In this document: positions 2,885 to 62,371 of the stretch, piece after piece | Position numbering within the stretch: the stretch's first letter is position 1 | Layout: every line of letters begins with the position of its first letter | Assembly: GCA_007376135.1 (NCBI GenBank) | Contig: VMFR01000002.1 | Coordinates: forward strand, 156,870 to 220,869 | Direction of reading: 5' to 3' | Source: Parcubacteria group bacterium Gr01-1014_31 | Lineage (GTDB): Bacteria; Patescibacteriota; Patescibacteriia; Buchananbacterales; GWA2-38-13 | Length of the DNA stretch: 64,000 bases | Position numbers and translations under genes: made by a program | Notes under the pieces: model-generated | Seen by the model: the letters and a program-made list of their open reading frames with translations, nothing else | What the model was told of the DNA's origin: nothing | Databases searched by the model: none

Positions 2885-3547
2885 ATGCAAGCTTTCCTTG
2901 ATTCCGCCAATTTGGAGGAGGTGAAGATCGCCCTCAGCAAGGGCTGGCTGCGCGGCATTACCACCAACCCGACCATCATGGCCCGCGAGCCAAAGACCAA
3001 CTACGCCGGGCATATCCAAAAGATCGCCGACCTGTGCCAGGAAGCCAATCAACCCGTGTCGTTGAGCATAGAAGTGTTCGCGCGCGATGCGGCCGGCATG
3101 CTGCAGCAGGCGCGCGAGTTCGTCAAAGAGGTCCGCTACCCGAGCCTCGCCATCAAGATCCCCGTCGCGCCGGAAACCATGGGGGTCATCGCCGCCCTGG
3201 CGGGCGAGGGCGTGCGCGTCAACGTAACGTGCGGGGTGACGTCCGGCCAGGGGGCGTTGGCCGCCGCTGCGGGCGCGACGTTCTACTCCTTGTTCTTCCA
3301 CCGCATCAAGGATCTCGGCACGGACGCGGCGCAGACCGTGCGGGACACCAAAACTTTGATCGCCGGGAGCGGCACGCAGATCATTTGCGGCAGCATCCGC
3401 AACGTCGACGATATCCTGGAGTGTTCACTGGCCGGGAGCGACATCGTGACGGCTCCGCTAAAGCTGTGGGAGGAAATGGCGCATCACGCCAAGTCGGTGG
3501 AGTGGAACGAGAAGTTTTTGCAGGATTTCGCGGCCTGGATCAAGTAA
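2885..3547 (+). CDS. Transaldolase / fructose-6-phosphate aldolase family (TalC/FSA-type, ~220 aa)
   Basis: DSANLEE...GITTNPT N-terminal motif and the typical ~220-aa length of FSA/TalC. Confidence 0.8.
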   Translation: MQAFLDSANLEEVKIALSKGWLRGITTNPTIMAREPKTNYAGHIQKIADLCQEANQPVSLSIEVFARDAAGMLQQAREFVKEVRYPSLAIKIPVAPETMGVIAALAGEGVRVNVTCGVTSGQGALAAAAGATFYSLFFHRIKDLGTDAAQTVRDTKTLIAGSGTQIICGSIRNVDDILECSLAGSDIVTAPLKLWEEMAHHAKSVEWNEKFLQDFAAWIK

Positions 3548-5695: not shown

Positions 5696-6820
5696 TTGAA
5701 TTCTTCTCTCATGTTCCATTTGCAACGCGCGTGGCTGCTGCTGCAGACTTTGGCGGCGTCATTCCGTCACCGACCTCCCGCGGCCGCAAAAAATATCCTG
5801 GTGCTGACCACAGGCAAGCTGGGCGACCTGGTGTGCCTGACGTCCGTGTTTGGCGCGGTTGGCCGCCAGCTGCGCACCACGGTCGATGTCGTTGCCAATC
5901 GCTTCGGCCCGGAGCTGTTCACCGGCAACCCCTCCATCGGTACCGTCTGGGTGCTCAATACGACATCACCATCGGCGCTGGCGGCGCGGCAGTACAGCCA
6001 TGCCGTCATGCTCAACCCGAATCCCGAGCTGGTTGCTCTGGCCGTGCGTGCGGGTATCCCCCATCGCATCGGCATCAGCACCCCGCGGGAGAATTTTTGG
6101 ACCAGGATCTTTGAACGGTTTCTGCGGGAGCGGTACGTCTATGGGTACGACCAACAGCAGGTACCCGAGTTCAGCCAGCGGCTGTTTGCCACCTTGGGCG
6201 TCCAGCCGGAACCGGAGCGGCGCGAATTGTTCCCGTCCGACGCCGACCGGCGCAACGCAGCGTCATTCTGGCAGCAGCACGCGCTTGACGGGCAGACGGT
6301 CGTGGCCATATGCCTGGGCGCCGGTAAGGCCTATAAACTATGGCCGGTCGAACGTTTCGCGGAAGTCGCCGACCATCTGATCGAGCACTATCGCGCAAAA
6401 ATATTGCTGGTTGGGAGCGGCGGGGATAAGGAACGGTCGGCGGCAATGGCGGCAGCAGTCATTCATCGCGAAGCGGTGGTGGATGCGACCGGGCAGTTCA
6501 AGTTGCTGGAGCTCGCCGCGGTCGTGCAGCCGTGCAAGCTGTTCATTGCCGCGGATACCGGTCCACTGCACGTCGCCGACACCATGAAGGTACCGGTGGT
6601 GGATATCGCCGGGCCCGCCGACTGCGTCACGCAGCATCCTATCTACCGGTACAAGATCCTGCACCCGCAGGGGAAAGAGCAGTACGGCGAGATGGCCGTC
6701 GCCTTCCATTCCGGTTCCGAGCATGAAGAGCGCTACGCTAAAATGGCGGGTGCGGTTACCGTGCAACAGGTGACCGACGCGATTGGCCAGCTTATCGGCG
6801 ATGGAGAACGTCGTAAGTAA
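5696..6820 (+). CDS. Glycosyltransferase family 9 (ADP-heptose:acceptor heptosyltransferase-like)
   Basis: GT9 motifs: N-terminal KLGDLV and C-terminal ADTGPLHVA. Alternative start at 5711. Confidence 0.75.
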   Translation: MNSSLMFHLQRAWLLLQTLAASFRHRPPAAAKNILVLTTGKLGDLVCLTSVFGAVGRQLRTTVDVVANRFGPELFTGNPSIGTVWVLNTTSPSALAARQYSHAVMLNPNPELVALAVRAGIPHRIGISTPRENFWTRIFERFLRERYVYGYDQQQVPEFSQRLFATLGVQPEPERRELFPSDADRRNAASFWQQHALDGQTVVAICLGAGKAYKLWPVERFAEVADHLIEHYRAKILLVGSGGDKERSAAMAAAVIHREAVVDATGQFKLLELAAVVQPCKLFIAADTGPLHVADTMKVPVVDIAGPADCVTQHPIYRYKILHPQGKEQYGEMAVAFHSGSEHEERYAKMAGAVTVQQVTDAIGQLIGDGERRK

Positions 6821-6874: not shown

Positions 6875-7654
6875 ATGCGCTTCGACATCATCACCATTTT
6901 TCCGAATCTCTTTGCTTCCTATCTGGAGGAAACTATCATTGCGCGCGCCATCCGCAAAAAATCGCTGCGCGTGAATCTGGTGGACCTGCGCCGTTTTGCG
7001 AAAGCTGGCGACGCCCACCGCAGCGTGGACGGCCGTCCGTACGGCGGCGGACCGGGAATGATACTCATGGTGGAACCCATCGCTAAAGCCCTTCGGGCTT
7101 TACGAATCAAGAATCAAGAATCAAGAATCAAGGGATCGGATTGGCCCACCGCCTCTCCCCTTGTGGGAGAGGCCCGCCGCGGGGTGAGGGGGCGATCGAA
7201 GGCCCGCGTTGTGATGCTCTCTCCTGATGGCAAGCCATTCACCCAGCGGGAGGCCGAACGGTTGAGCAAGTACGACCGTCTTGTTCTCCTCTGCGGACGT
7301 TACGAGGGGTTTGATGCGCGCACGGTTAAACTTGTGGATGAGAAGCTTTCCATCGGCCCGTACGTGCTCGCCGGCGGTGAATTGCCCGCGATGGTGGTGC
7401 TGGAAGCCGTGGCGCGGCATGTGCCGGGCGTGGTCGGGCACCCCGAGGCGCTGAAGGAGGAAACTTTTTCCCAGGGTATGGACTACGTCGAGTATCCGCA
7501 GTACACGCGCCCGGAAAAATTTGTTCCGGCGGGTCTTCGACTCCGAGGCTCAGACTCGAGGAGCAAGCGTGGGGCGGCATGGCGCGTGCCAAAAATTCTG
7601 CTCTCCGGCGACCACAAAAAGATTGCCGCCTGGCGGCAGGCAAGGACCAAGTAA
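6875..7654 (+). CDS. trmD: tRNA (guanine37-N1)-methyltransferase TrmD, with two in-frame low-complexity insertions
   Basis: MRFDIITIFP..., YGGGPGM and LLCGRYEGFD motifs. An insertion of roughly 20-35 aa between PIAKAL and MLSPDGKPF is encoded by the tandem repeat (gaatcaa)x4 plus a palindrome. Confidence 0.9.
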   Translation: MRFDIITIFPNLFASYLEETIIARAIRKKSLRVNLVDLRRFAKAGDAHRSVDGRPYGGGPGMILMVEPIAKALRALRIKNQESRIKGSDWPTASPLVGEARRGVRGRSKARVVMLSPDGKPFTQREAERLSKYDRLVLLCGRYEGFDARTVKLVDEKLSIGPYVLAGGELPAMVVLEAVARHVPGVVGHPEALKEETFSQGMDYVEYPQYTRPEKFVPAGLRLRGSDSRSKRGAAWRVPKILLSGDHKKIAAWRQARTK

Positions 7655-7792: not shown

Positions 7793-9196
7793 ATGAGCGA
7801 TGCACCGTGCATCGGGATCGTCGGCGCCTTCGGCGGCGACGAGGGCAAGGGCAAAGTGGTGGATGTGCTGGCGCAGAACGCCGGCTGCGTCGTGCGTTGC
7901 GAGGGCGGCGCCAACGCCGGCCATACCATTCGGCTGGAGGACCTGTTGTTCATCGGGCATCTGTTGCCGAGCGGCGCTGCGGCCGGCACGCTGTGCGCGA
8001 TCGCCCGCGGCGTGCGCGTGGACCCGATGCAGCTGCTGCAGGAAGTCGGCAGTTATACCGCGCCGGGTGCTGGCGGGAAGTGCCGAACGCTCGCGCTCCT
8101 CGTGGACGAAGGGGCGGCGTTGTCGCTGCCGTGGCACGTCAAGCTCGAAGAGTACTTCGAGCGCGTCAAGGAAAAGCGCGTGCGCGGAACTGGCAGCACA
8201 CGACGCGGCATGGGGCCCATCGCCGCCACCGCGGCGTTGCGGCTCAACCCGCGGGTCGGCCTCCTGACGCGGCCCGAGGAACTGCGACAGTGGTTGGACG
8301 ACTTCTTCGAGGCGTTCCATCCTCTGCTGGCTGAAGCCGGCAACACCGTCACGCCTGCGGCGCTCGCCGAGCTGCTGGCGGGTCATGGGGCGCAGCTTGC
8401 CCCCTACGTCGGCGACGTGCGCGCGCGTGTCGAACAGGTCTGGCGCGGCGGCGACCCCGTCGTGCTGGAAGGCGCCCAGGGTATGATCCTGGACCCGTAC
8501 TGGGGCACGTACCCCTACACCACGCAGGGCATGTGCACCTTCGCCGGCCTGCTGCAGGGCTGCGGGCTGCCGGTCTCCGCGCTGACCGACCGCATCGGCG
8601 TTTGCAAGGCGATCGCCACCCGCGTGGGCAACGGGCCTTTCCCGTCCGAGCTGGGCGACCCGGCAAAGCTCGCTGCCGAGCCCAAGGTCGTGGACGCCGA
8701 CCTGGATGCGTTCGCCCGCGAGATGCTCACCAAGATCAACGCCGGCCATGCCTCCGACCAGGAGCTGGGCTTCTACCTGCGCGTGCGCGCCGACGAGTAC
8801 GGCGCCACGACCGGCCGCCACCGCCGCACCGGGTGGCTGGATGGCGCATGGCTGGAGTACTTCGCAGCCGTCAACGATCCCACCGCGCTGGCGTTGACCA
8901 AGCTCGACTGTCTGGGCGGTCTGCGCGAGGTCAAGATCGTGGTCGCCTACGAGCTGGACGGCCGCCATCTGCCGCCGGGCACCGTGCCGGCGCTGGCGTC
9001 GGACTACGCGCGCGTGCGCCCCGTCTACCAGACGCTGCCAGGCTGGAGCGAAGACATCAGCGACGTCACCCGGTTTGACGCCCTGCCCGCCGAGGCCCGC
9101 GCCTACGTCGAACTGGTGGAGGAGATCGCCAACTGTCCGATAGGGTGGATCGGTACCGGACCCCTTCGCCGACAGCTCATCATCCGGCCGCACTGA
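7793..9196 (+). CDS. purA: Adenylosuccinate synthetase
   Basis: GDEGKGKVVD P-loop, GPxYxxKxxR-like segments and TKLD. Confidence 0.9.
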   Translation: MSDAPCIGIVGAFGGDEGKGKVVDVLAQNAGCVVRCEGGANAGHTIRLEDLLFIGHLLPSGAAAGTLCAIARGVRVDPMQLLQEVGSYTAPGAGGKCRTLALLVDEGAALSLPWHVKLEEYFERVKEKRVRGTGSTRRGMGPIAATAALRLNPRVGLLTRPEELRQWLDDFFEAFHPLLAEAGNTVTPAALAELLAGHGAQLAPYVGDVRARVEQVWRGGDPVVLEGAQGMILDPYWGTYPYTTQGMCTFAGLLQGCGLPVSALTDRIGVCKAIATRVGNGPFPSELGDPAKLAAEPKVVDADLDAFAREMLTKINAGHASDQELGFYLRVRADEYGATTGRHRRTGWLDGAWLEYFAAVNDPTALALTKLDCLGGLREVKIVVAYELDGRHLPPGTVPALASDYARVRPVYQTLPGWSEDISDVTRFDALPAEARAYVELVEEIANCPIGWIGTGPLRRQLIIRPH

Positions 9197-9330: not shown

Positions 9331-9700
9331 GGGAGCGTTTAAAATCGCTAACGTTCACAACCGGCGCCTAACTGTTTCCACAGCTCCCGACCGCGACGGA
9401 TTGCGGTGCAGGAAAAACAGTGGCATCTGATAGCGGAGACCGTGGCGTAACTGCCAAACCCTCCGCCGCCCTATCAGGTTCCTCTGTTTTTTCTTCACCC
9501 AAAATGGTGAAGGAAAACGGACGTTGACAACTGAAACGTGGTAGGAACAACCACTGTTGTCCCGCTTCGGCGGGGCAACAGCCTACAGTCAATTCCTTTT
9601 TTGTCGGCTCCCATCGGGGGCCGGCAGAGGCTGGTTTCTGAAGCTATCTTTCAGCCTGCTTCGCCACTCGGCGAAGCTATCAATAAAAGAGCTTTCACTT

Positions 9701-11190
<1,490 letters not shown>

Positions 11191-23818: not shown

Positions 23819-24055
23819 GCTCCTATCCATACATAGCAATTGTACGGAGGGGAGTTGCAGCTGGTCAATGCGGCGGTGACGTTGACAGTCTGCGGATTTT
23901 ATGGAATGATGAGTGAACATTTTTCCCGCTTGAAGTTGTTCCGCTGACCCTGCTATAGTGCAGGCGTTCCCGTTTTTCCGGCAGTGGCTGTGGTGGTGTG
24001 TCCTCTTCGAATGACGGGACGATTCCCTCTTTGTTATTTTTTTGCATCCTTTGGT

Positions 24056-24113
24056 GGGCGCGTAGCTCAGTTGGTTATCCCGCCCCACGGCGGGACAGGG
24101 AGCGCGTCACTGA
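24056..24113 (+). pseudogene. 5' portion (tRNA positions 1-35) of an interrupted second tRNA-Ile copy, with a 20-22-nt GC hairpin inserted in the D-loop
   Basis: gggcgcgtagctcagttggtta + [tcccgccccacggcgggacagg] + gagcgcgtcactga. With the insert removed it is identical to positions 1-35 of the intact tRNA-Ile 70 bp downstream. Confidence 0.7.
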
Positions 24114-24182
24114 CCCGCCTGCCGGAGTACGGAGTCTTTAATAATGTAATATCTATTCCCCATTCCATCGTTTGTTGCTGTT

Positions 24183-24259
24183 GGGCGCGTAGCTCAGTTG
24201 GTTAGAGCGCGTCACTGATAATGACGAGGTCCCTGGTTCGACTCCAGGCGCGCCCACCA
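24183..24259 (+). tRNA. tRNA-Ile (anticodon GAT), CCA encoded
   Basis: Cloverleaf gggcgcg/cgcgccc acceptor, anticodon loop cTGATaa, T-loop ttcgact, discriminator A + CCA. Confidence 0.85.
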
Positions 24260-24296
24260 GCAGCACGTGATGGGGTGACTCCGTACGGCGGGCAGG

Positions 24297-24359
24297 TAAT
24301 GACGAGGTCCCTGGTTTTTACCCCGTCGAATGGCGGGGCGACTCCAGGCGCGCCCACCA
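24297..24359 (+). pseudogene. 3' portion (positions 36-76) of the interrupted tRNA-Ile copy, with a 22-nt GC hairpin inserted in the T-loop
   Basis: taatgacgaggtccctggtt + [tttaccccgtcgaatggcgggg] + cgactccaggcgcgcccacca. Identical to the intact gene once the insert is removed. Confidence 0.7.
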
Positions 24360-24401
24360 AAGGATGCAAGTTTTCGAGTTCGTCCTTGTCCTACAATTAT
24401 T

Positions 24402-26708: not shown

Positions 26709-26781
26709 CGGGGATTAGCGCAGTTGGTAGCGCGCTTGGTTTGGGACCAAGAGGTCGCGGGTTCGAATCCCGCATCCCCGA
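26709..26781 (+). tRNA. tRNA-Pro (anticodon TGG), CCA not encoded
   Basis: Acceptor cggggat/atccccg, D-stem gcgc, anticodon arm cttgg-tTTGGga-ccaag, T-arm gcggg-ttcgaat-cccgc. Confidence 0.75.
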
Positions 26782-26798: not shown

Positions 26799-26875
26799 CG
26801 TGGGTTTCCCGCCACCGTAATGTAATTTATTACGAGGGCGGGACCTCCCGCCAACGGCGGGATGGCAAATCCCAC
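26799..26875 (+). repeat. Copy A of a ~80-bp hairpin repeat (gggtttcccgcc / AT-rich core / ggcgggacc / cccgccaacggcggg)
   Basis: Homologous block-for-block to 36296-36360. Shares the cccgccNNNNggcggg hairpin and the taatgtaat core with the tRNA-Ile locus (24078-24160). Confidence 0.65.
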
Positions 26876-26949
26876 CAGCCCGATTTTTTCTCCCGCATGT
26901 CCCGAGTGGTTTTTCACCGAGCTTCTCCGTTGGCTACTGAAGTGTTGCT

Positions 26950-30333: not shown

Positions 30334-30712
30334 TTTGAAAGCCCAGCAACGAATATACCCCCGATAGCCTCGGGGGTATATTTATACTCCATCCACTTCT
30401 CCTTTCCACCTTTCGTTCCCGCTCTTTTCTCGCGGCCTGGATATTTCCGGGCCGTTTTTTTGCCCGTTCATATGCCATAGGATATCCACCCTTGATTATT
30501 TGACTGGCGGTTCTATGCTTTGGTTCATCAAATCCACTTCTCGGGGATGTTCAGGATGCCGCAGGGATGTTCTGCCGCACGAGAGTGGCCTTTTCTTTTA
30601 CCTGTGAATTTCGGCTGCGGCGCGCGTGCGTCGCTGGTTGAAAATTTGCAGCACCCGTTCTTTCCGATTCTTTTTTGGACCCCCAGGCTGGTTTCCCAGT
30701 CCGGGGATGACA

Positions 30713-30745
30713 ACGATAAAACCCCGCGGCCGCGGGGTTTTATCG
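30713..30745. terminator. Bidirectional terminator hairpin
   Basis: aaaaccccgcggccgcggggttttatcgttg. Confidence 0.55.
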
Positions 30746-30765
30746 TTGTGCTCGGGACGGGTTTG

Positions 30766-30936: not shown

Positions 30937-31086
30937 AGTTTTCTCATTATACGGATTTGCCCCCGTCGCGGGCAAGCGCCCCTTGCCGCGGACGGTTTCG
31001 GGGTGTACCATAGGCGCTACCATCCACGTGCGAAGACTCGTGCTTTCTCCCGCCTACTAATTTTATAGGTATCTCCTCGTGCGAGA

Positions 31087-31157
31087 GCGGGTATTGTATA
31101 ATGGCATTACCTCAGCTTTCCAAGCTGATGACGCGGGTTCGATTCCCGCTACCCGCT
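31087..31157 (+). tRNA. tRNA-Gly (anticodon TCC), CCA not encoded
   Basis: Acceptor gcgggta/tacccgc, anticodon arm tcagc-ttTCCaa-gctga, T-arm gcggg-ttcgatt-cccgc. The D-stem has one U-U mismatch, so the parse is moderately confident. Confidence 0.7.
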
Positions 31158-31202
31158 CTCGCACGAGGAAAGGAAGGTAGGCGGGATCCCGCCCGCGGCG
31201 AG

Positions 31203-31313
31203 ACAAGCTGATGACGCGGGTTCGTCCTATACCAGAGCAAAGCACAGTATAGGACGCCCTGTACCGTGTTCCGCAAAGCGGAACTCTGGTACTGGGGCGA
31301 TTCCCGCTACCCG
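31203..31313 (+). pseudogene. Second copy of the tRNA-Gly 3' half (positions 36-72), interrupted by a 75-nt structured insert in the T-loop (between 55 and 56)
   Basis: caagctgatgacgcgggtt + [cgtcctata...ctgggg] + cgattcccgctacccgc. Identical to the intact gene outside the insert; the insert has nested inverted repeats (ccagag...ctctgg, tcctatac...gtatagga, gttccgc...gcggaac). Confidence 0.65.
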
Positions 31314-31414
31314 CCTACATGAATACCGGCGCTGACGCGCCGGTTTTTGGTGAATAAAAAAAGCCCCGGCGGTTGTAGCAACCGCGCGGGGCCAACGGTG
31401 CGGAGCCAACGAGG

Positions 31415-35897: not shown

Positions 35898-36108
35898 TCT
35901 CCATTAGTGCCAGAAAATGCCGCGGTCTTCCGCGGCATTTTTGGTCCCCGTGGCTTGAAAAGCGGTATTTACGGTGGTACGCTGGGGCGTACCAAGTGTT
36001 TGGGCGCGTTTTGCCCCGCAAGGGAAGACCGCCAGTCGAGGAGCTGTCCATTCAACCTTTTACATCATGTCTTTGTCGCGGTGGTGGGCAACATTTTGAC
36101 CCCATTGA

Positions 36109-36136
36109 GGCCAGGTAGCCAAGTGGTAAGGCAACG
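36109..36136 (+). pseudogene. Isolated copy of tRNA-Cys positions 1-29 (5' fragment)
   Basis: ggccaggtagccaagtggtaaggcaacg is identical to the first 28 nt of the intact tRNA-Cys 54 bp downstream. Confidence 0.65.
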
Positions 36137-36189
36137 CGGCGTCACGCGTTAAAAATTTCTTTTCGTAGAGTCGCTTTTGGCGGCAGGGA

Positions 36190-36261
36190 GGCCAGGTAGC
36201 CAAGTGGTAAGGCAACGGTCTGCAAAACCGTTATTCACGGGTTCGATTCCCGTCCTGGCCT
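36190..36261 (+). tRNA. tRNA-Cys (anticodon GCA), CCA not encoded
   Basis: Acceptor ggccagg/cctggcc, anticodon arm acggt-cTGCAaa-accgt, T-arm acggg-ttcgatt-cccgt. Confidence 0.8.
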
Positions 36262-36295
36262 CCTTGCCGCCAACTTCGTTGTTGCGTATTGATGG

Positions 36296-36360
36296 ACGGG
36301 TTTCCCGCCTCCGAAATATTTTTTTAAGAAAGGAAGGCGGGACCCCGCCAACGGCGGTGG
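36296..36360 (+). repeat. Copy B of the ~80-bp hairpin repeat (gggtttcccgcc / AT core / ggcgggacc / ccgccaacggcgg)
   Basis: Block-for-block homology with 26799-26875. Abuts the tRNA-Cys 3' fragment. Confidence 0.65.
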
Positions 36361-36379
36361 CGATTCCCGTCCTGGCCTC
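36361..36379 (+). pseudogene. Isolated copy of the tRNA-Cys 3' end (T-loop position 56 to acceptor end)
   Basis: cgattcccgtcctggcctc is identical to the 3' 19 nt of the intact tRNA-Cys and starts exactly at T-loop position 56. Confidence 0.65.
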
Positions 36380-36507
36380 GGTGCGGTCAATCGCGGTCGC
36401 GGTTCGTGTAGGGGTTGGTCGGTCCTCAGTCTTGGAGGGCCGATTTTTATGTCAGGCTTGCGAAAAATGCCGTTTTCTGATATTCTCAAGCAGTCTTTAC
36501 GACCCCT

Positions 36508-43965: not shown

Positions 43966-43982
43966 TTGGTATGGCGAAAAAT

Positions 43983-44022
43983 AAAAACGTTCACCTGGCG
44001 GTGAACATCTTTCTGGTGCGCC
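43983..44022 (-). repeat. Distal copy of a 40-bp direct repeat (minus-strand terminator hairpin plus the last 9 nt of the tRNA-Lys 3' end), followed by a degenerate tRNA-like sequence with hairpin inserts
   Basis: aaaaacgttcacctggcggtgaacatctttctggtgcgcc is identical to 44188-44227. Confidence 0.6.
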
Positions 44023-44187
44023 TAGAGAGGATCGAAGTCGGTCCGATGCCCATCGGACCTCCCCATAGGGGCTTCCGCCCCTCTGGTGCTCGCTGCGCTC
44101 GCGGTCACCCCCGGCAATGCGGGGGAGTTTTTCCTCCCCCGCCACCCCCACGTTCGATTCCCTGGCGGATAAACATTGTTAATAAAG

Positions 44188-44227
44188 AAAAACGTTCACC
44201 TGGCGGTGAACATCTTTCTGGTGCGCC
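44188..44227 (-). repeat. Proximal copy of the 40-bp repeat: functional terminator (gttcaccgccaggtgaac + T-run on minus strand) plus the tRNA-Lys 3' end
   Basis: Identical to 43983-44022. Confidence 0.6.
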
Positions 44228-44294
44228 CAGAGGGAATCGAACCCCCAACCGTTGGCTTAAGAGGCCACTGCTCTGCCAATTGAGCTATGGGCGC
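44219..44294 (-). tRNA. tRNA-Lys (anticodon CTT), CCA encoded
   Basis: Reverse complement: gcgccca...anticodon loop cTCTTaa...ggttcgattccc...tgggcgc a cca. Confidence 0.8.
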
Positions 44295-47241: not shown

Positions 47242-47940
47242 TCACGACCAGCTCTTCGTTTTTAATCCGCGTTCCGCCGCCCGCTCCTGGGCTTCGCGTT
47301 TGCTGGAACCTTCTCCTTCCGCGACCAGCTCTTCGCCCAGGTAGAGACCGACGGTGAAGTGTTTTGCGTGGTCCGGTCCGCGTTCCGACAGCACCTGGTA
47401 CGTGGGGGTGATCCCCAGCTGCTCCTGGGCGGATTCCTGAAAGCGGCTCTTGGGGTCGTGGTAGAGCTGCTCTTCGAAAATGCGCGGTAGTTCCGGCAGC
47501 AGGCAGCGCTCGAGGAACCCTTTGGTGGCGTCGTACCCGCCGTCCAGGTAGATGGCGCCGACTACCGCCTCAAAGGCGTTGGCCAGGATATACTGGCGCG
47601 CTTTGCCCTGGGCGTCGGCCGCTTCGCCGCGGCTCAAGTACAGGTAGGGCTCCAGCTCCAGGTCGCGCGCGACCTTGGCCAGCATTTTGGCGTTCACCAG
47701 CGCCGCGCGCCAGTTGGTCAGTTCGCCCTCCGAATTGGGGTAGCGTTGATAGAGATTTTCGGTCACCACGAGCTCGATGACGGCGTCGCCTAAAAATTCC
47801 AGCCGTTCATTCTGGCCGAGCGGGAAACCCGGGTTCTCATTCAGGTAGGACCGGTGGACCATCGCCTGCTTGAGCAGGTCGAGGGTGTGGAAAGTGACGC
47901 CGAGGCGTTGCTGCAGCGGCCCAAAGTCGGTCAGCGGCAT
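47242..47940 (-). CDS. rnc: Ribonuclease III
   Basis: ERLEFLGDAV catalytic signature and a C-terminal dsRBD. Confidence 0.9.
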   Translation of the reverse strand: MPLTDFGPLQQRLGVTFHTLDLLKQAMVHRSYLNENPGFPLGQNERLEFLGDAVIELVVTENLYQRYPNSEGELTNWRAALVNAKMLAKVARDLELEPYLYLSRGEAADAQGKARQYILANAFEAVVGAIYLDGGYDATKGFLERCLLPELPRIFEEQLYHDPKSRFQESAQEQLGITPTYQVLSERGPDHAKHFTVGLYLGEELVAEGEGSSKREAQERAAERGLKTKSWS

Positions 47941-60620: not shown

Positions 60621-60841
60621 CAGAAAGTCATCACCGCCGTCGGCGGGATCCCGCGGCGGGAAAAGTCAAAAGTAAGGAAACGCGCCGCGGGCGCGTTTTT
60701 TTATAAAAAAGCCCCGGACACAGAGATCGCGTCCGGGGCTCCAAGGAGGACCATGCAGGTCCAATGGAAAGGGCGGGCCACCACAGGAGGAATAGAAAGG
60801 GATGGCAACTGATGATAATACTAGCGTCAGGACCGGCGCTG

Positions 60842-61327: not shown

Positions 61328-62371
61328 TTATTGGGTAATCGGTAAGTTGGCGTTCACTTTGATTTTCCGCCAATCTTTCGGTTTTCCGAAGTACCCGGCT
61401 GTGGCGATCATGGCGGCGTTGTCGGTGCAGTAAGAAAAGTCCGGCACGCGGAAATCAAGTTTATGGTCGCTGACCGCGTTCCCGAGTCGTTCGCGCAAGC
61501 GACGGTTGGCCGCGACGCCGCCGGCGAGCACGACAGTTTTGGCGCGGTACTTCGCGGCGGCCACGATGGTTTTTGGCACCAGCGAGTCAACGATTGCCGC
61601 CTGGATGGACGCGCACAGGTCGCGTTTCTCCTGCAAAGAGATGCGGCGATTTTTCACATGGTAAAGGACCGCCGTCTTGAGGCCCGAGAAACTGAAATTT
61701 AGGTCGCCGCTCCGAAGCATGGGCCGCGGGAATGCCACGGCCAGGGGGTCTCCCTGCTCGGCGAGCTTGGCCACCTGCGGGCCACCCGGGTACGGGAGGT
61801 CGAGGATCTTTGCGGTCTTATCGAACGCCTCGCCGGCAGCGTCGTCCAGGGTTTGCCCCAAGAGCTTGAAGCTGCGCGCATTTTTCATCAGCACCAGTTC
61901 GGTGTGCCCGCCGGAAACCACCAAGGCAACCATGGGAAATTTTATCTTTCCTAACTTTTGCCTTTTGCCTTTTGCCTTTTGAATTTCCGTTGGTAGCCAC
62001 GCCGCATACACGTGCGCCCGCAGGTGGTTGACGGGGACCAGCGGCGTTTTCCAAGCGAGGGCAAACGCCTTGGCCGTCTGCACGCCGACCAGGAGCGACG
62101 TGATGAGCCCGGGTCCGGCCGTCACGGCGATGCGGTCCAGCGCGTTCGGTTTGACCAAGGCTTGCCGCAGCGCGCGGTCCACGACGGGGATGATTTTGCC
62201 GACGTGGTTCCTGGCCGCGATTTCCGGCACTACGCCGCCGTAGCGGGCGTGGATTGTGGCTTGCGACGCGACCACGCTGGAGCGGACGGAAAAACCAGCA
62301 GCGGTCTTCTCAACCACCGCTGCCGCCGTTTCATCGCAGCTGGATTCAATGCCGAGGATGAGCATGGGCAA
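61328..62371 (-). CDS. tsaD: tRNA N6-adenosine threonylcarbamoyltransferase TsaD, with a short in-frame Lys-rich insertion
   Basis: MLILGIESSCDETAAAV, SGGHTEL and GxxxDN motifs. The insertion KAKGKRQKLGKIK is encoded by the tandem repeat (aaaaggc)x3. Confidence 0.9.
   Translation of the reverse strand: MPMLILGIESSCDETAAAVVEKTAAGFSVRSSVVASQATIHARYGGVVPEIAARNHVGKIIPVVDRALRQALVKPNALDRIAVTAGPGLITSLLVGVQTAKAFALAWKTPLVPVNHLRAHVYAAWLPTEIQKAKGKRQKLGKIKFPMVALVVSGGHTELVLMKNARSFKLLGQTLDDAAGEAFDKTAKILDLPYPGGPQVAKLAEQGDPLAVAFPRPMLRSGDLNFSFSGLKTAVLYHVKNRRISLQEKRDLCASIQAAIVDSLVPKTIVAAAKYRAKTVVLAGGVAANRRLRERLGNAVSDHKLDFRVPDFSYCTDNAAMIATAGYFGKPKDWRKIKVNANLPITQ

Follow-up and report, generated by a model that had tools for sequence, protein, structure and literature searches.

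Genes for tRNAs are classic landing sites of mobile DNA, and two ways are known in which the elements that enter them stay harmless: they splice themselves from the transcript, or they restore the end of the tRNA at the attachment (att) site. Williams, in 2002, reportedly assigned the tRNA-targeting islands and prophages of the tyrosine-integrase type to anticodon-loop and T-loop sublocations. Small palindromic repeats that invade genes form a further category, represented by the Rickettsia palindromic elements, the GC clusters of mitochondria and the double-hairpin elements. In Patescibacteria, group I introns occupy the 35/36 position of tRNA genes (Nakagawa et al., bioRxiv 10.1101/2025.07.03.662931), and multiple mobile bulge-helix-bulge (BHB) introns, as well as split or permuted tRNA genes, are known from Archaea (Thermoproteales, Nanoarchaeum) and the red alga Cyanidioschyzon (PMC4090602, PMC3728597). 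Phage T4 carries a free-standing homing endonuclease cassette, SegB, within a tRNA gene cluster (PMC2330249). The present analysis concerns the tRNA-Cys gene of the uncultured Parcubacteria group bacterium Gr01-1014_31 and the other tRNA genes lying with it in a stretch of 64,000 nucleotides (hereafter the window; contig VMFR01000002.1, positions 156,870 to 220,869), where live tRNA genes are likely to be nested inside dead predecessors of themselves that are split by small hairpin-ended inserts.

The tRNA-Cys locus

The live tRNA-Cys(GCA) gene was delimited as 36190-36263 by ARAGORN and as 36190-36261 by Rfam (RF00005, 73 bits). A blastn-short search of the window returned exact copies of its two ends on either side of it, namely positions 1-28 upstream (E 5.6e-11) and the last 19 nucleotides downstream (E 1.3e-5), the latter starting precisely at position 56 as the first-pass annotation, made from the sequence alone, had stated. 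The upstream copy had been described there as exact over positions 1-29, which holds for its exactness and not for its extent, as base 29 differs from that of the live gene (C versus G); when two leader bases are included, the exact repeat measures 30 nt (36107-36136 = 36188-36217). The distances given there also need adjustment, from 54 bp to 53 nt between the upstream fragment and the live gene, and from 99 bp to 97 nt between the ARAGORN end of the gene and the downstream fragment. Altogether, the tRNA parts of the outer and live copies are identical at 47 of 47 positions.

The relationship between the two fragments was revealed by the sequences that flank them. The leader and trailer of the live gene pair at 13 of 13 positions and add 13 bp to the acceptor stem, resulting in a 20-bp helix (20-nt arms, 95%). 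An inverted-repeat search showed that the leader preceding the 5' fragment pairs at 12 of 13 positions with the trailer following the 3' fragment, crossed combinations of inner and outer flanks yielding 8/13 and 10/13, and shuffled versions of the outer trailer reached 12/13 in 7 of 100,000 trials (p ~7e-5). In the minimum free energy (MFE) fold of 36090-36400 the outer helix, the inner helix and the inner cloverleaf lie one within the other (-146.9 kcal/mol, z -8.2). Because the outer leader pairs with the outer trailer, both fragments can be regarded as the ends of one older enclosing gene, and the arrangement is nested, not tandem. The two helices are homologous (TTGNCNNCANNGA is common to both) and differ in five pairs, four of which changed on both sides with pairing retained. 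The outer and inner units thus look like alleles that diverged under selection on the flanking helix, and not like a fresh local duplicate. As a general tRNA trait of these bacteria such a helix had to be discarded, since an extension of the acceptor stem by at least eight pairs was present in just 6 of 142 tRNAs, three of them being nested genes of the window; it is a property of few units, chiefly nested ones.

The live gene sits in the anticodon-arm region of the older tRNA-Cys unit. The 5' junction of the insert that carries it is eroded and lacks the TCCCGCC end described below for related inserts. A consensus promoter scan of the AT-rich spacer that follows (36137-36176) gave no match, and a promoter role for this spacer is conjectural. 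Beyond the live trailer, about positions 30-43 of the outer gene are missing or eroded, until the motif ACGGGTT (36296-36302) is reached, which corresponds to the 5' strand of the T-stem plus T54 and T55 and is identical to that of the live gene. A 58-nt double-hairpin element, repeat B, is inserted exactly between T55 and C56, with ACGGGTT directly 5' and the sequence from C56 onward directly 3'. It comprises TCCCGCC (36303-36309), an AT-rich loop, GGCGGGA (36336-36342), a second hairpin CCGCC-AAC-GGCGG (36345-36357) and a TGG tail. The fusion of this repeat to the 3' fragment had been noticed in the first-pass annotation, and its motif string (gggtttcccgcc / AT core / ggcgggacc / ccgccaacggcgg) was indeed found at 36298-36357, followed by TGG and then by the fragment.

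The sole other copy in the window, repeat A (26802-26865), lies just downstream of the live tRNA-Pro gene (26709-26781), meaning that both window copies of the repeat are tRNA-associated. Here the order is a T-stem remnant GTGGGTT (26800-26806), the repeat proper (26807-26865) and an old tRNA-Pro 3' end beginning at C56 (CAAATCCCACCAGCCCGA, 26866-26883), everything upstream of the T-stem being absent from the outer copy. The old T-stem reads GTGGG/CCCAC and the live one GCGGG/CCCGC, a compensatory difference at the 50:64 pair. The downstream tRNA-Cys fragment had originally been viewed as an att duplicate of the kind left by integrative elements. This does not hold, since the other half of the T-arm (ACGGGTT in Cys, GTGGGTT in Pro) stands directly 5' of the repeat; with both halves present and nothing duplicated, an att-site reading is excluded for the two loci. 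The att model also leaves the upstream 5' fragment without explanation, and it meets an outer leader/trailer pair of 12/13 and a window devoid of integrase genes. Repeats A and B are therefore simple T-loop insertions of 58-59 nt with no duplicated core. The break at 55/56 in the T-loop is nevertheless real and recurrent, being shared by Cys, Ile and Pro and ambiguous within 2 nt in Gly.

Nested genes and inserts in the window and in related genomes

The tRNA-Cys locus does not stand alone but belongs to a lineage-wide pattern. The window has seven tRNA genes, and five of them (Cys, Ile, Gly, Pro and Lys) are accompanied by remains of older copies, those for Phe and Arg being clean. The best-preserved case is tRNA-Ile, whose live gene (24183-24259) lies inside a second tRNA-Ile with four exons (24056-24077, 24100-24113, 24297-24316 and 24339-24359) that tile positions 1-77 exactly (77/77, 100% identity), with no base lost or duplicated. 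The exons are separated by three inserts: i1 (24078-24099), a 22-nt hairpin at canonical position 21/22 (TCCCGCC-CCAC-GGCGGGA-CAGG); i2 (24114-24296), which spans 183 nt at 35/36, contains an AT-rich stretch plus the live tRNA-Ile and ends in CCCGCC...GGCGGG-CAGG with a long terminal stem; and i3 (24317-24338), again a 22-nt hairpin, at 55/56. An 11-bp leader/trailer helix (CATCCTTTGGT/ACCAAAGGATG) encloses the whole nest, the MFE fold of the region consists of nested helices (z -9.7), and a σ70-like promoter site is present upstream of the outer gene (23930-23959). Upstream of the nest, at 24015-24033, a tRNA 3' piece starting at C56 and preceded by CGGGA (CGGGA|CGATTCCCTCT) displays a tRNA-Lys-like T-arm; this piece may represent a still older layer.

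In the tRNA-Gly nest, a remnant of the 5' exon ending at position 35 (GCTTTC, 31042-31047) is followed, at 35/36, by a cassette (31048-31203) that carries the live tRNA-Gly (31087-31158) and has the form TCCCGCCTAC...GTAGGCGGGA plus a second hairpin, TCCCGCC-CGC-GGCGAG-A. Then come an old exon with exactly positions 36-56 (31204-31224), a T-loop insert (~31225-31297) with unrelated hairpins and a break ambiguous within 2 nt (CG), and an exact 3' exon (31298-31314); the outer gene is devoid of its 5' part. At the tRNA-Lys locus, downstream of the live gene (44219-44294), an older 3' end starting at T54, together with its terminator, forms a 93% copy, over 58 nt, of 44184-44241, which belongs to the live gene. 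Between the live tRNA and this displaced end (44140-44165, minus strand) there is an inverted T-loop-like motif (GGGAATCGAA or GGATTCGAA) that complements the tRNA's own T-loop, and the same was seen near 6080 in locus L126 and near 7205 in locus L095 of the comparison set described below, at three unrelated loci in all.

Most of these inserts belong to one family with the architecture (T)CCCGCC ... GGCGGGA, an AT-rich segment and, often, CCCGCC-NNN-GGCGG plus 2-4 nt. Alignments showed that repeats A and B, i1 and i2 of Ile and i2 of Gly have in common the (T)CCCGCC...GGCGGGA ends and further motifs, with TAATGTAAT shared by the tRNA-bearing Ile i2 and the empty Pro repeat A, and AAAGGAAGG..GGCGGGA.(C)CCGCC-NNN-GGCG shared by the tRNA-bearing Gly i2 and the empty Cys repeat B. 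Given this sharing, A and B can be taken as the cargo-less form of the elements of which two members carry a live tRNA (Ile and Gly). The short hairpin CCGCC-N-GGCGG was rejected as a diagnostic marker, as it is a commonplace terminator here and only the extended shared architecture is informative. Relative to the tRNA sense strand, the six family inserts of the window all point the same way (the Gly T-loop insert not counted), and none of them duplicates its target; their sites fall at 55/56 (Cys, Ile, Pro), 35/36 (Ile, Gly) and 21/22 (Ile), with 34/35 added by relatives. No target duplication was found at the Ile i1, i2 and i3 junctions, the most being the 2-nt CG ambiguity in the Gly T-loop. 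The live tRNA genes are always uninterrupted, and dead copies are present at every stage of erosion.

Table 1. Features of the tRNA-Cys locus and of the other nested or displaced tRNA copies, in window coordinates.
Feature	Positions	Strand	Basis
Outer tRNA-Cys leader, TTGACCCCATTGA	36096..36108	+	Inverted-repeat search, 12/13 pairs with 36378-36390; MFE fold
Old tRNA-Cys 5' fragment, positions 1-28 (canonical 1-29)	36109..36136	+	blastn-short, 100% versus live gene
Spacer with AT-rich stretch GTTAAAAATTTCTTTTCGTAGAG, part of the inserted unit carrying the live tRNA-Cys	36137..36176	+	Sequence
Live tRNA-Cys leader, TTGGCGGCAGGGA	36177..36189	+	13/13 pairs with 36261-36273
Live tRNA-Cys (GCA)	36190..36263	+	ARAGORN; Rfam RF00005, 73 bits
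Remainder of live trailer (full trailer TCCTTGCCGCCAA from discriminator 36261)	36264..36273	+	Inverted repeat, pairing count
Eroded middle of old tRNA-Cys	36274..36302	+	Sequence comparison
Repeat B, 58-nt double-hairpin element at T-loop 55/56 of old tRNA-Cys	36303..36360	+	Alignment with repeat A and Gly/Ile cassette ends
Old tRNA-Cys 3' fragment, CGATTCCCGTCCTGGCCTC, C56 to discriminator plus one C	36361..36379	+	blastn-short, 100% versus live gene
Outer tRNA-Cys trailer, TCGGTGCGGTCAA	36378..36390	+	Pairs with 36096-36108
tRNA-Ile nest, best-preserved example	24045..24366	+	Four fragments at 100% identity; fold z -9.7
tRNA-Pro sister locus	26802..26883	+	Sequence, alignment with repeat B
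tRNA-Gly nest	31042..31314	+	blastn-short, sequence, alignments
Older tRNA-Lys 3' end (from T54) plus terminator	43979..44036	-	93% copy of 44184-44241 (58 nt)

The window belongs to a metagenome contig of 288 kb, of which about 80 kb was covered, from a genome with 61% GC; some 14 kb of additional sequence from this contig contained no further tRNA. Its 16S rRNA gene is bacterial and its gene content is typical of the candidate phyla radiation (CPR), with DUF5671, pili, RNase Y and others. The nearest genomes, as judged by IF2, are metagenome-assembled genomes (MAGs) of Buchanan-, Falkow-, Magasanik-, Uhr- and Komeilibacteria that are at most 53-56% identical, and genome and metagenome scans with IF2 disclosed no close relative, reaching 56% identity at most. 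The comparison set consisted of 161 fetched loci (2.4 Mb, 144 tRNAs; labelled L003, L033 and so on), in which 13 of the 144 tRNAs have exact same-strand self-fragments of at least 14 nt within 800 nt, and none has such fragments on the opposite strand or with reversed queries.

The tRNA-Cys/infB locus is nested in the window and in L084, shows related fragment duplications in L003 and is plain in L138, where the same synteny (157-aa gene, terminator, tRNA-Cys, infB) is kept. As exact fragments could not outlast the split of lineages this distant (IF2 at most 56%), the nests must have arisen repeatedly. In L084 (55% by IF2, among the closest), three tRNA-Cys 5' halves, two dead plus the live one, precede infB, each with TCCCGA directly after G34, and two 3' halves have CGGGG and TCGGGA directly before C35. 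The tRNA-Cys of L003 has the same TCCCGAC.../...TCGGGA junctions, and in both genomes the outer copies are decayed. L003 also contains a tRNA-Lys nested within an older interrupted tRNA-Lys and, at 9460-9830, a tandem duplication of about 206 nt in which a tRNA-Cys 3' piece (34-53) lies upstream of a 5' piece (1-33), in permuted order. In L046, a 112-nt cassette composed of a 13-bp terminal inverted repeat and a tRNA-Met sits exactly at 35/36 of an outer tRNA-Met that is complete and foldable; compared with the inner gene, this outer one has compensatory changes in its acceptor, anticodon and T stems. In L037 the live tRNA-Val gene has a broken copy beside it, whose D-loop contains a CCCGCC...GGCGGG hairpin.

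Related genomes also yielded an enzyme gene within a nest. In L033, a GIY-YIG gene (Pfam E 4e-16) separates the live tRNA-Leu from the 5' fragment of an older one. This locus has two GIY-YIG genes, both on the minus strand (~3053-3290 and 8143-8376), one intact and the other with in-frame stops, the degenerate one adjoining a live tRNA-Ile and likewise placed between it and a tRNA fragment, and three of the six GIY-YIG matches in the 2.4 Mb fall within 200 nt of a tRNA. A different sequence, the 20-nt perfect palindrome CCTGCCTGCCGGCAGGCAGG, recurs across numerous unrelated MAGs of the CPR and across 35 IMG/VR contigs (L167-L201) whose GC content spans 38-68%, with sites in L003 (19250, 19394), L033 (3281, 7984), L005, L016, L017, L031, L039, L099 and L126. 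It is often located between short direct repeats and at times inside tRNAs, in the D-loop at 21/22 (L198, L033), the D-stem at 11/12 (L003), the T-loop (L031) and the variable loop (L168, L191). It is absent from the window and looks like a separate, very widespread mobile palindrome.

Other features of the window include a complete 16S gene (9695-11188); there is no 23S or 5S gene in the window and the nearest tRNA-Ile is 13 kb off, so the rRNA genes are unlinked. The segment 12000-16000 has a GC content of 52.5%, against ~61% elsewhere, and a methyltransferase-domain open reading frame (ORF) overlapped on the opposite strand by a GMC-oxidoreductase ORF; on these grounds it may be acquired DNA. 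The TsaD gene (61328-62371, minus strand) is annotated publicly as two calls (201 and 137 aa) and appears as one 347-aa ORF in the six-frame list; translation of the second call ran into stop codons, and the split may stem from a frameshift or from a calling problem. Lastly, a perfect 40-nt palindrome (30710-30749, AAAACCCCGCGGCCGCGGGGTTTT core) between convergent genes is probably a bidirectional terminator.

Proposed mechanism and competing explanations

Two levels of interpretation have to be distinguished. The structural one, live tRNAs nested in dead predecessors together with small hairpin-ended inserts, is held with good confidence, whereas for the mechanism that could have produced it, mobile replacement cassettes, the chances seem about even. 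In the proposed model, small cassettes would insert into tRNA-gene loops without target duplication and in tRNA-sense orientation only, some of them carrying an AT-rich segment and a complete tRNA. Reduced genomes being presumed to have one gene per tRNA, an insertion would be viable only if the element brings the cognate tRNA, and cargo-less elements would settle only in copies already dead, which deletions would subsequently erode. Transcription of the nested tRNA would start at the promoter of the old gene, and ordinary tRNA/RNase III processing would free it from the long flanking helix (the window has an RNase III gene at 47242-47940). As for the activity involved, the candidates would be a trans-acting structure- or strand-specific nuclease or recombinase working on folded single-stranded DNA, a homing endonuclease, suggested by the GIY-YIG gene in the L033 nest, or recombination through conserved exon flanks after DNA uptake. 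Replacement, as opposed to duplication in situ, is favoured by the tRNA-Met of L046, the old T-stem of tRNA-Pro and the serial tRNA-Cys halves of L084.

Several facts weigh against this interpretation. Neither the window nor its 80-kb neighbourhood yielded an integrase, transposase or homing endonuclease: the called genes and the Pfam scans from window position 1 to ~71 kb included no integrase or recombinase family, and tblastn and a hidden Markov model search of 1034 six-frame ORFs detected no endonuclease gene in the window, so that GIY-YIG was dropped as the local enzyme. At tRNA-Cys an extra deletion must be assumed, because the 5' junction falls within the anticodon stem (28/29) and has no element end. 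Very recent local events could also account for the perfect identity of the tRNA parts in the outer and inner units, the model leaves unexplained how cassettes first acquired a tRNA, and the available relatives offer no filled-versus-empty pair at short evolutionary distance. In addition, CCGCC-N-GGCGG hairpins are common terminators in a genome with 61% GC, and a double GC hairpin with weak similarity to the 3' end of the family inserts (CCCGCCGCGGGATCCCGCCGACGGCGG, 60634-60670) is situated away from any tRNA, in the spacer of convergent protein genes.

Among the competing explanations, purely local accidents, meaning slippage or template-switch duplication at hairpin DNA followed by decay, with neither a mobile element nor replacement, seem unlikely. 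tRNA genes and GC-rich hairpins are natural template-switch sites, the window fragments are 100% identical to the live genes, and the 206-nt tandem duplication of L003 holds pieces of tRNA-Cys. Such accidents would, however, not be expected to leave three precise Ile junctions with no base gained or lost, nor to place insert sequence common to different tRNAs at four loci of the same window. Moreover, inner and outer units are bordered by inverted-complementary flanks instead of direct repeats, and the compensatory differences between inner and outer copies (Cys flanks, Pro T-stem, L046 Met) are not what neutral decay predicts. The footprint of classical tyrosine-integrase islands or prophages, in which the new tRNA end was supplied at the T-loop or anticodon loop and the element was later mostly deleted, is improbable as a general account. 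The breaks do coincide with the classical sublocations, and tRNA-Lys fits this scheme, the live gene being followed by ~150 nt of unrelated sequence and then by an older 3' end that has its own terminator and lacks a matching 5' strand of the T-stem; L095 and L126 are similar, so that these Lys, L095 and L126 remnants could be compatible with an integrase footprint. The Cys, Pro, Ile and Gly inserts are, in contrast, flanked by both arm halves with no core duplicated, measure just 22-183 nt and lie in a window lacking an integrase. The upstream 5' fragments, the exactly tiled outer Ile and the mutual pairing of the outer flanks would also be left aside, and scans of viral contigs for the 28-mer of the Cys 5' end, the core of repeat A/B and the i1 junction gave zero matches.

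The possibility that the outer copies are functional interrupted genes, with a new type of bacterial intervening sequence, or a processing scaffold for the inner tRNA, draws on the four intact exons (77/77) of the outer tRNA-Ile, on inserts in the D-, anticodon and T-loops reminiscent of the multiple introns of Thermoproteales, on the known Patescibacteria intron site at 35/36 (bioRxiv 10.1101/2025.07.03.662931) and on a whole region that folds far better than shuffles. It is nonetheless quite improbable, as the outer Cys, Gly and Pro copies are incomplete and could not yield a tRNA, those of L084 and L003 are decayed, the junctions show no bulge-helix-bulge, no ribozyme was detected and no live tRNA gene here contains a family insert. 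ARAGORN in intron mode (-i, -io), used as a systematic screen for nested genes, returned mostly chimeras of adjacent tRNAs. A group I intron remnant was rejected: Rfam searches of the whole window at the gathering threshold, and of both regions at E<=1, retrieved tRNA only and no group I ribozyme (RF00028), and the 5' exons end in A35 (Ile) and C35 (Gly) instead of U and the Gly insert in A instead of G. The same applies to BHB introns, as junctions lie at hairpin bases or inside helices (MFE fold of 24045-24370) and i1 lacks the 4-bp central helix in both registers. Neither a splicing endonuclease (EndA) nor a ligase was seen in the ~80 kb covered of the 288-kb contig. Finally, an assembly artefact or chance similarity is hardly conceivable. 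The source is a metagenome contig assembled with large k, and yet a second assembly by a different assembler, from another run (SRR8863434), is 100% identical over the 7281 bp that span the locus; the E-values speak against chance and independent MAGs display the same architecture.

Significance and comparison with described systems

In these nests, the target tRNA seems to have been replaced wholesale by a copy inside an insert of ~100-180 nt, with dead predecessors accumulating around the live gene. This points to a mode of tRNA gene replacement that has not been described before; in the literature searched, no account of nested tRNA cassettes or of replacement cassettes turned up. If confirmed, it would account for puzzling tRNA pseudogene fragments and failed annotations in CPR genomes, document how tRNA alleles turn over and are exchanged horizontally in minimal-genome organisms and point to an enzyme with strand-specific recognition of tRNA-gene loops that leaves no duplication. 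A further step, put forward only tentatively, is that CPR bacteria host a family of selfish tRNA-replacement cassettes, tiny and bounded by inverted repeats. These would invade an essential tRNA gene, present in a single copy, through its loops, destroy it and supply their own copy under the victim's promoter. Such cassettes would be impossible to lose, successive alleles would stack as Russian dolls, and a third way, besides self-splicing and att-site restoration, would exist for a mobile element to reside inside a tRNA gene.

Compared with integrative elements, the inserts share entry through the anticodon loop or T-loop, a target kept functional by replacement sequence and displaced tRNA pieces. 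They differ in that a complete tRNA is brought instead of the 3' part alone, in the split of the old gene into pieces on both sides, and in having inverted-repeat ends within 22-183 nt, no duplicated att core and no integrase. Group I introns occur in the same phylum, at the same 35/36 site (Ile, Gly, L046 Met) and without target duplication, but in the nests it is a second gene carried by the insert, and not splicing, that restores function. With BHB systems there are in common several short related inserts in the D-, anticodon and T-loops, leader/trailer helices and a permuted order (L003); here, in contrast, the host is bacterial, bulge-helix-bulge motifs are absent, the copies are mostly incomplete (only the outer Ile is whole, the outer Cys, Gly and Pro not reconstituting a tRNA) and an uninterrupted copy is always present.

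SegB-type cassettes likewise consist of selfish DNA copied into a conserved tRNA region without target duplication, a likeness reinforced by the GIY-YIG gene of the L033 nest, whereas the window has no endonuclease gene and the gene that is targeted ends up broken apart and replaced. Small palindromic repeats resemble the inserts as short GC-rich single or double hairpins present in several copies per genome and able to sit inside genes. Unlike them and unlike miniature inverted-repeat transposable elements, the copies in the window are all located in tRNA loops, in one orientation and without target duplication, and some of them carry a tRNA.

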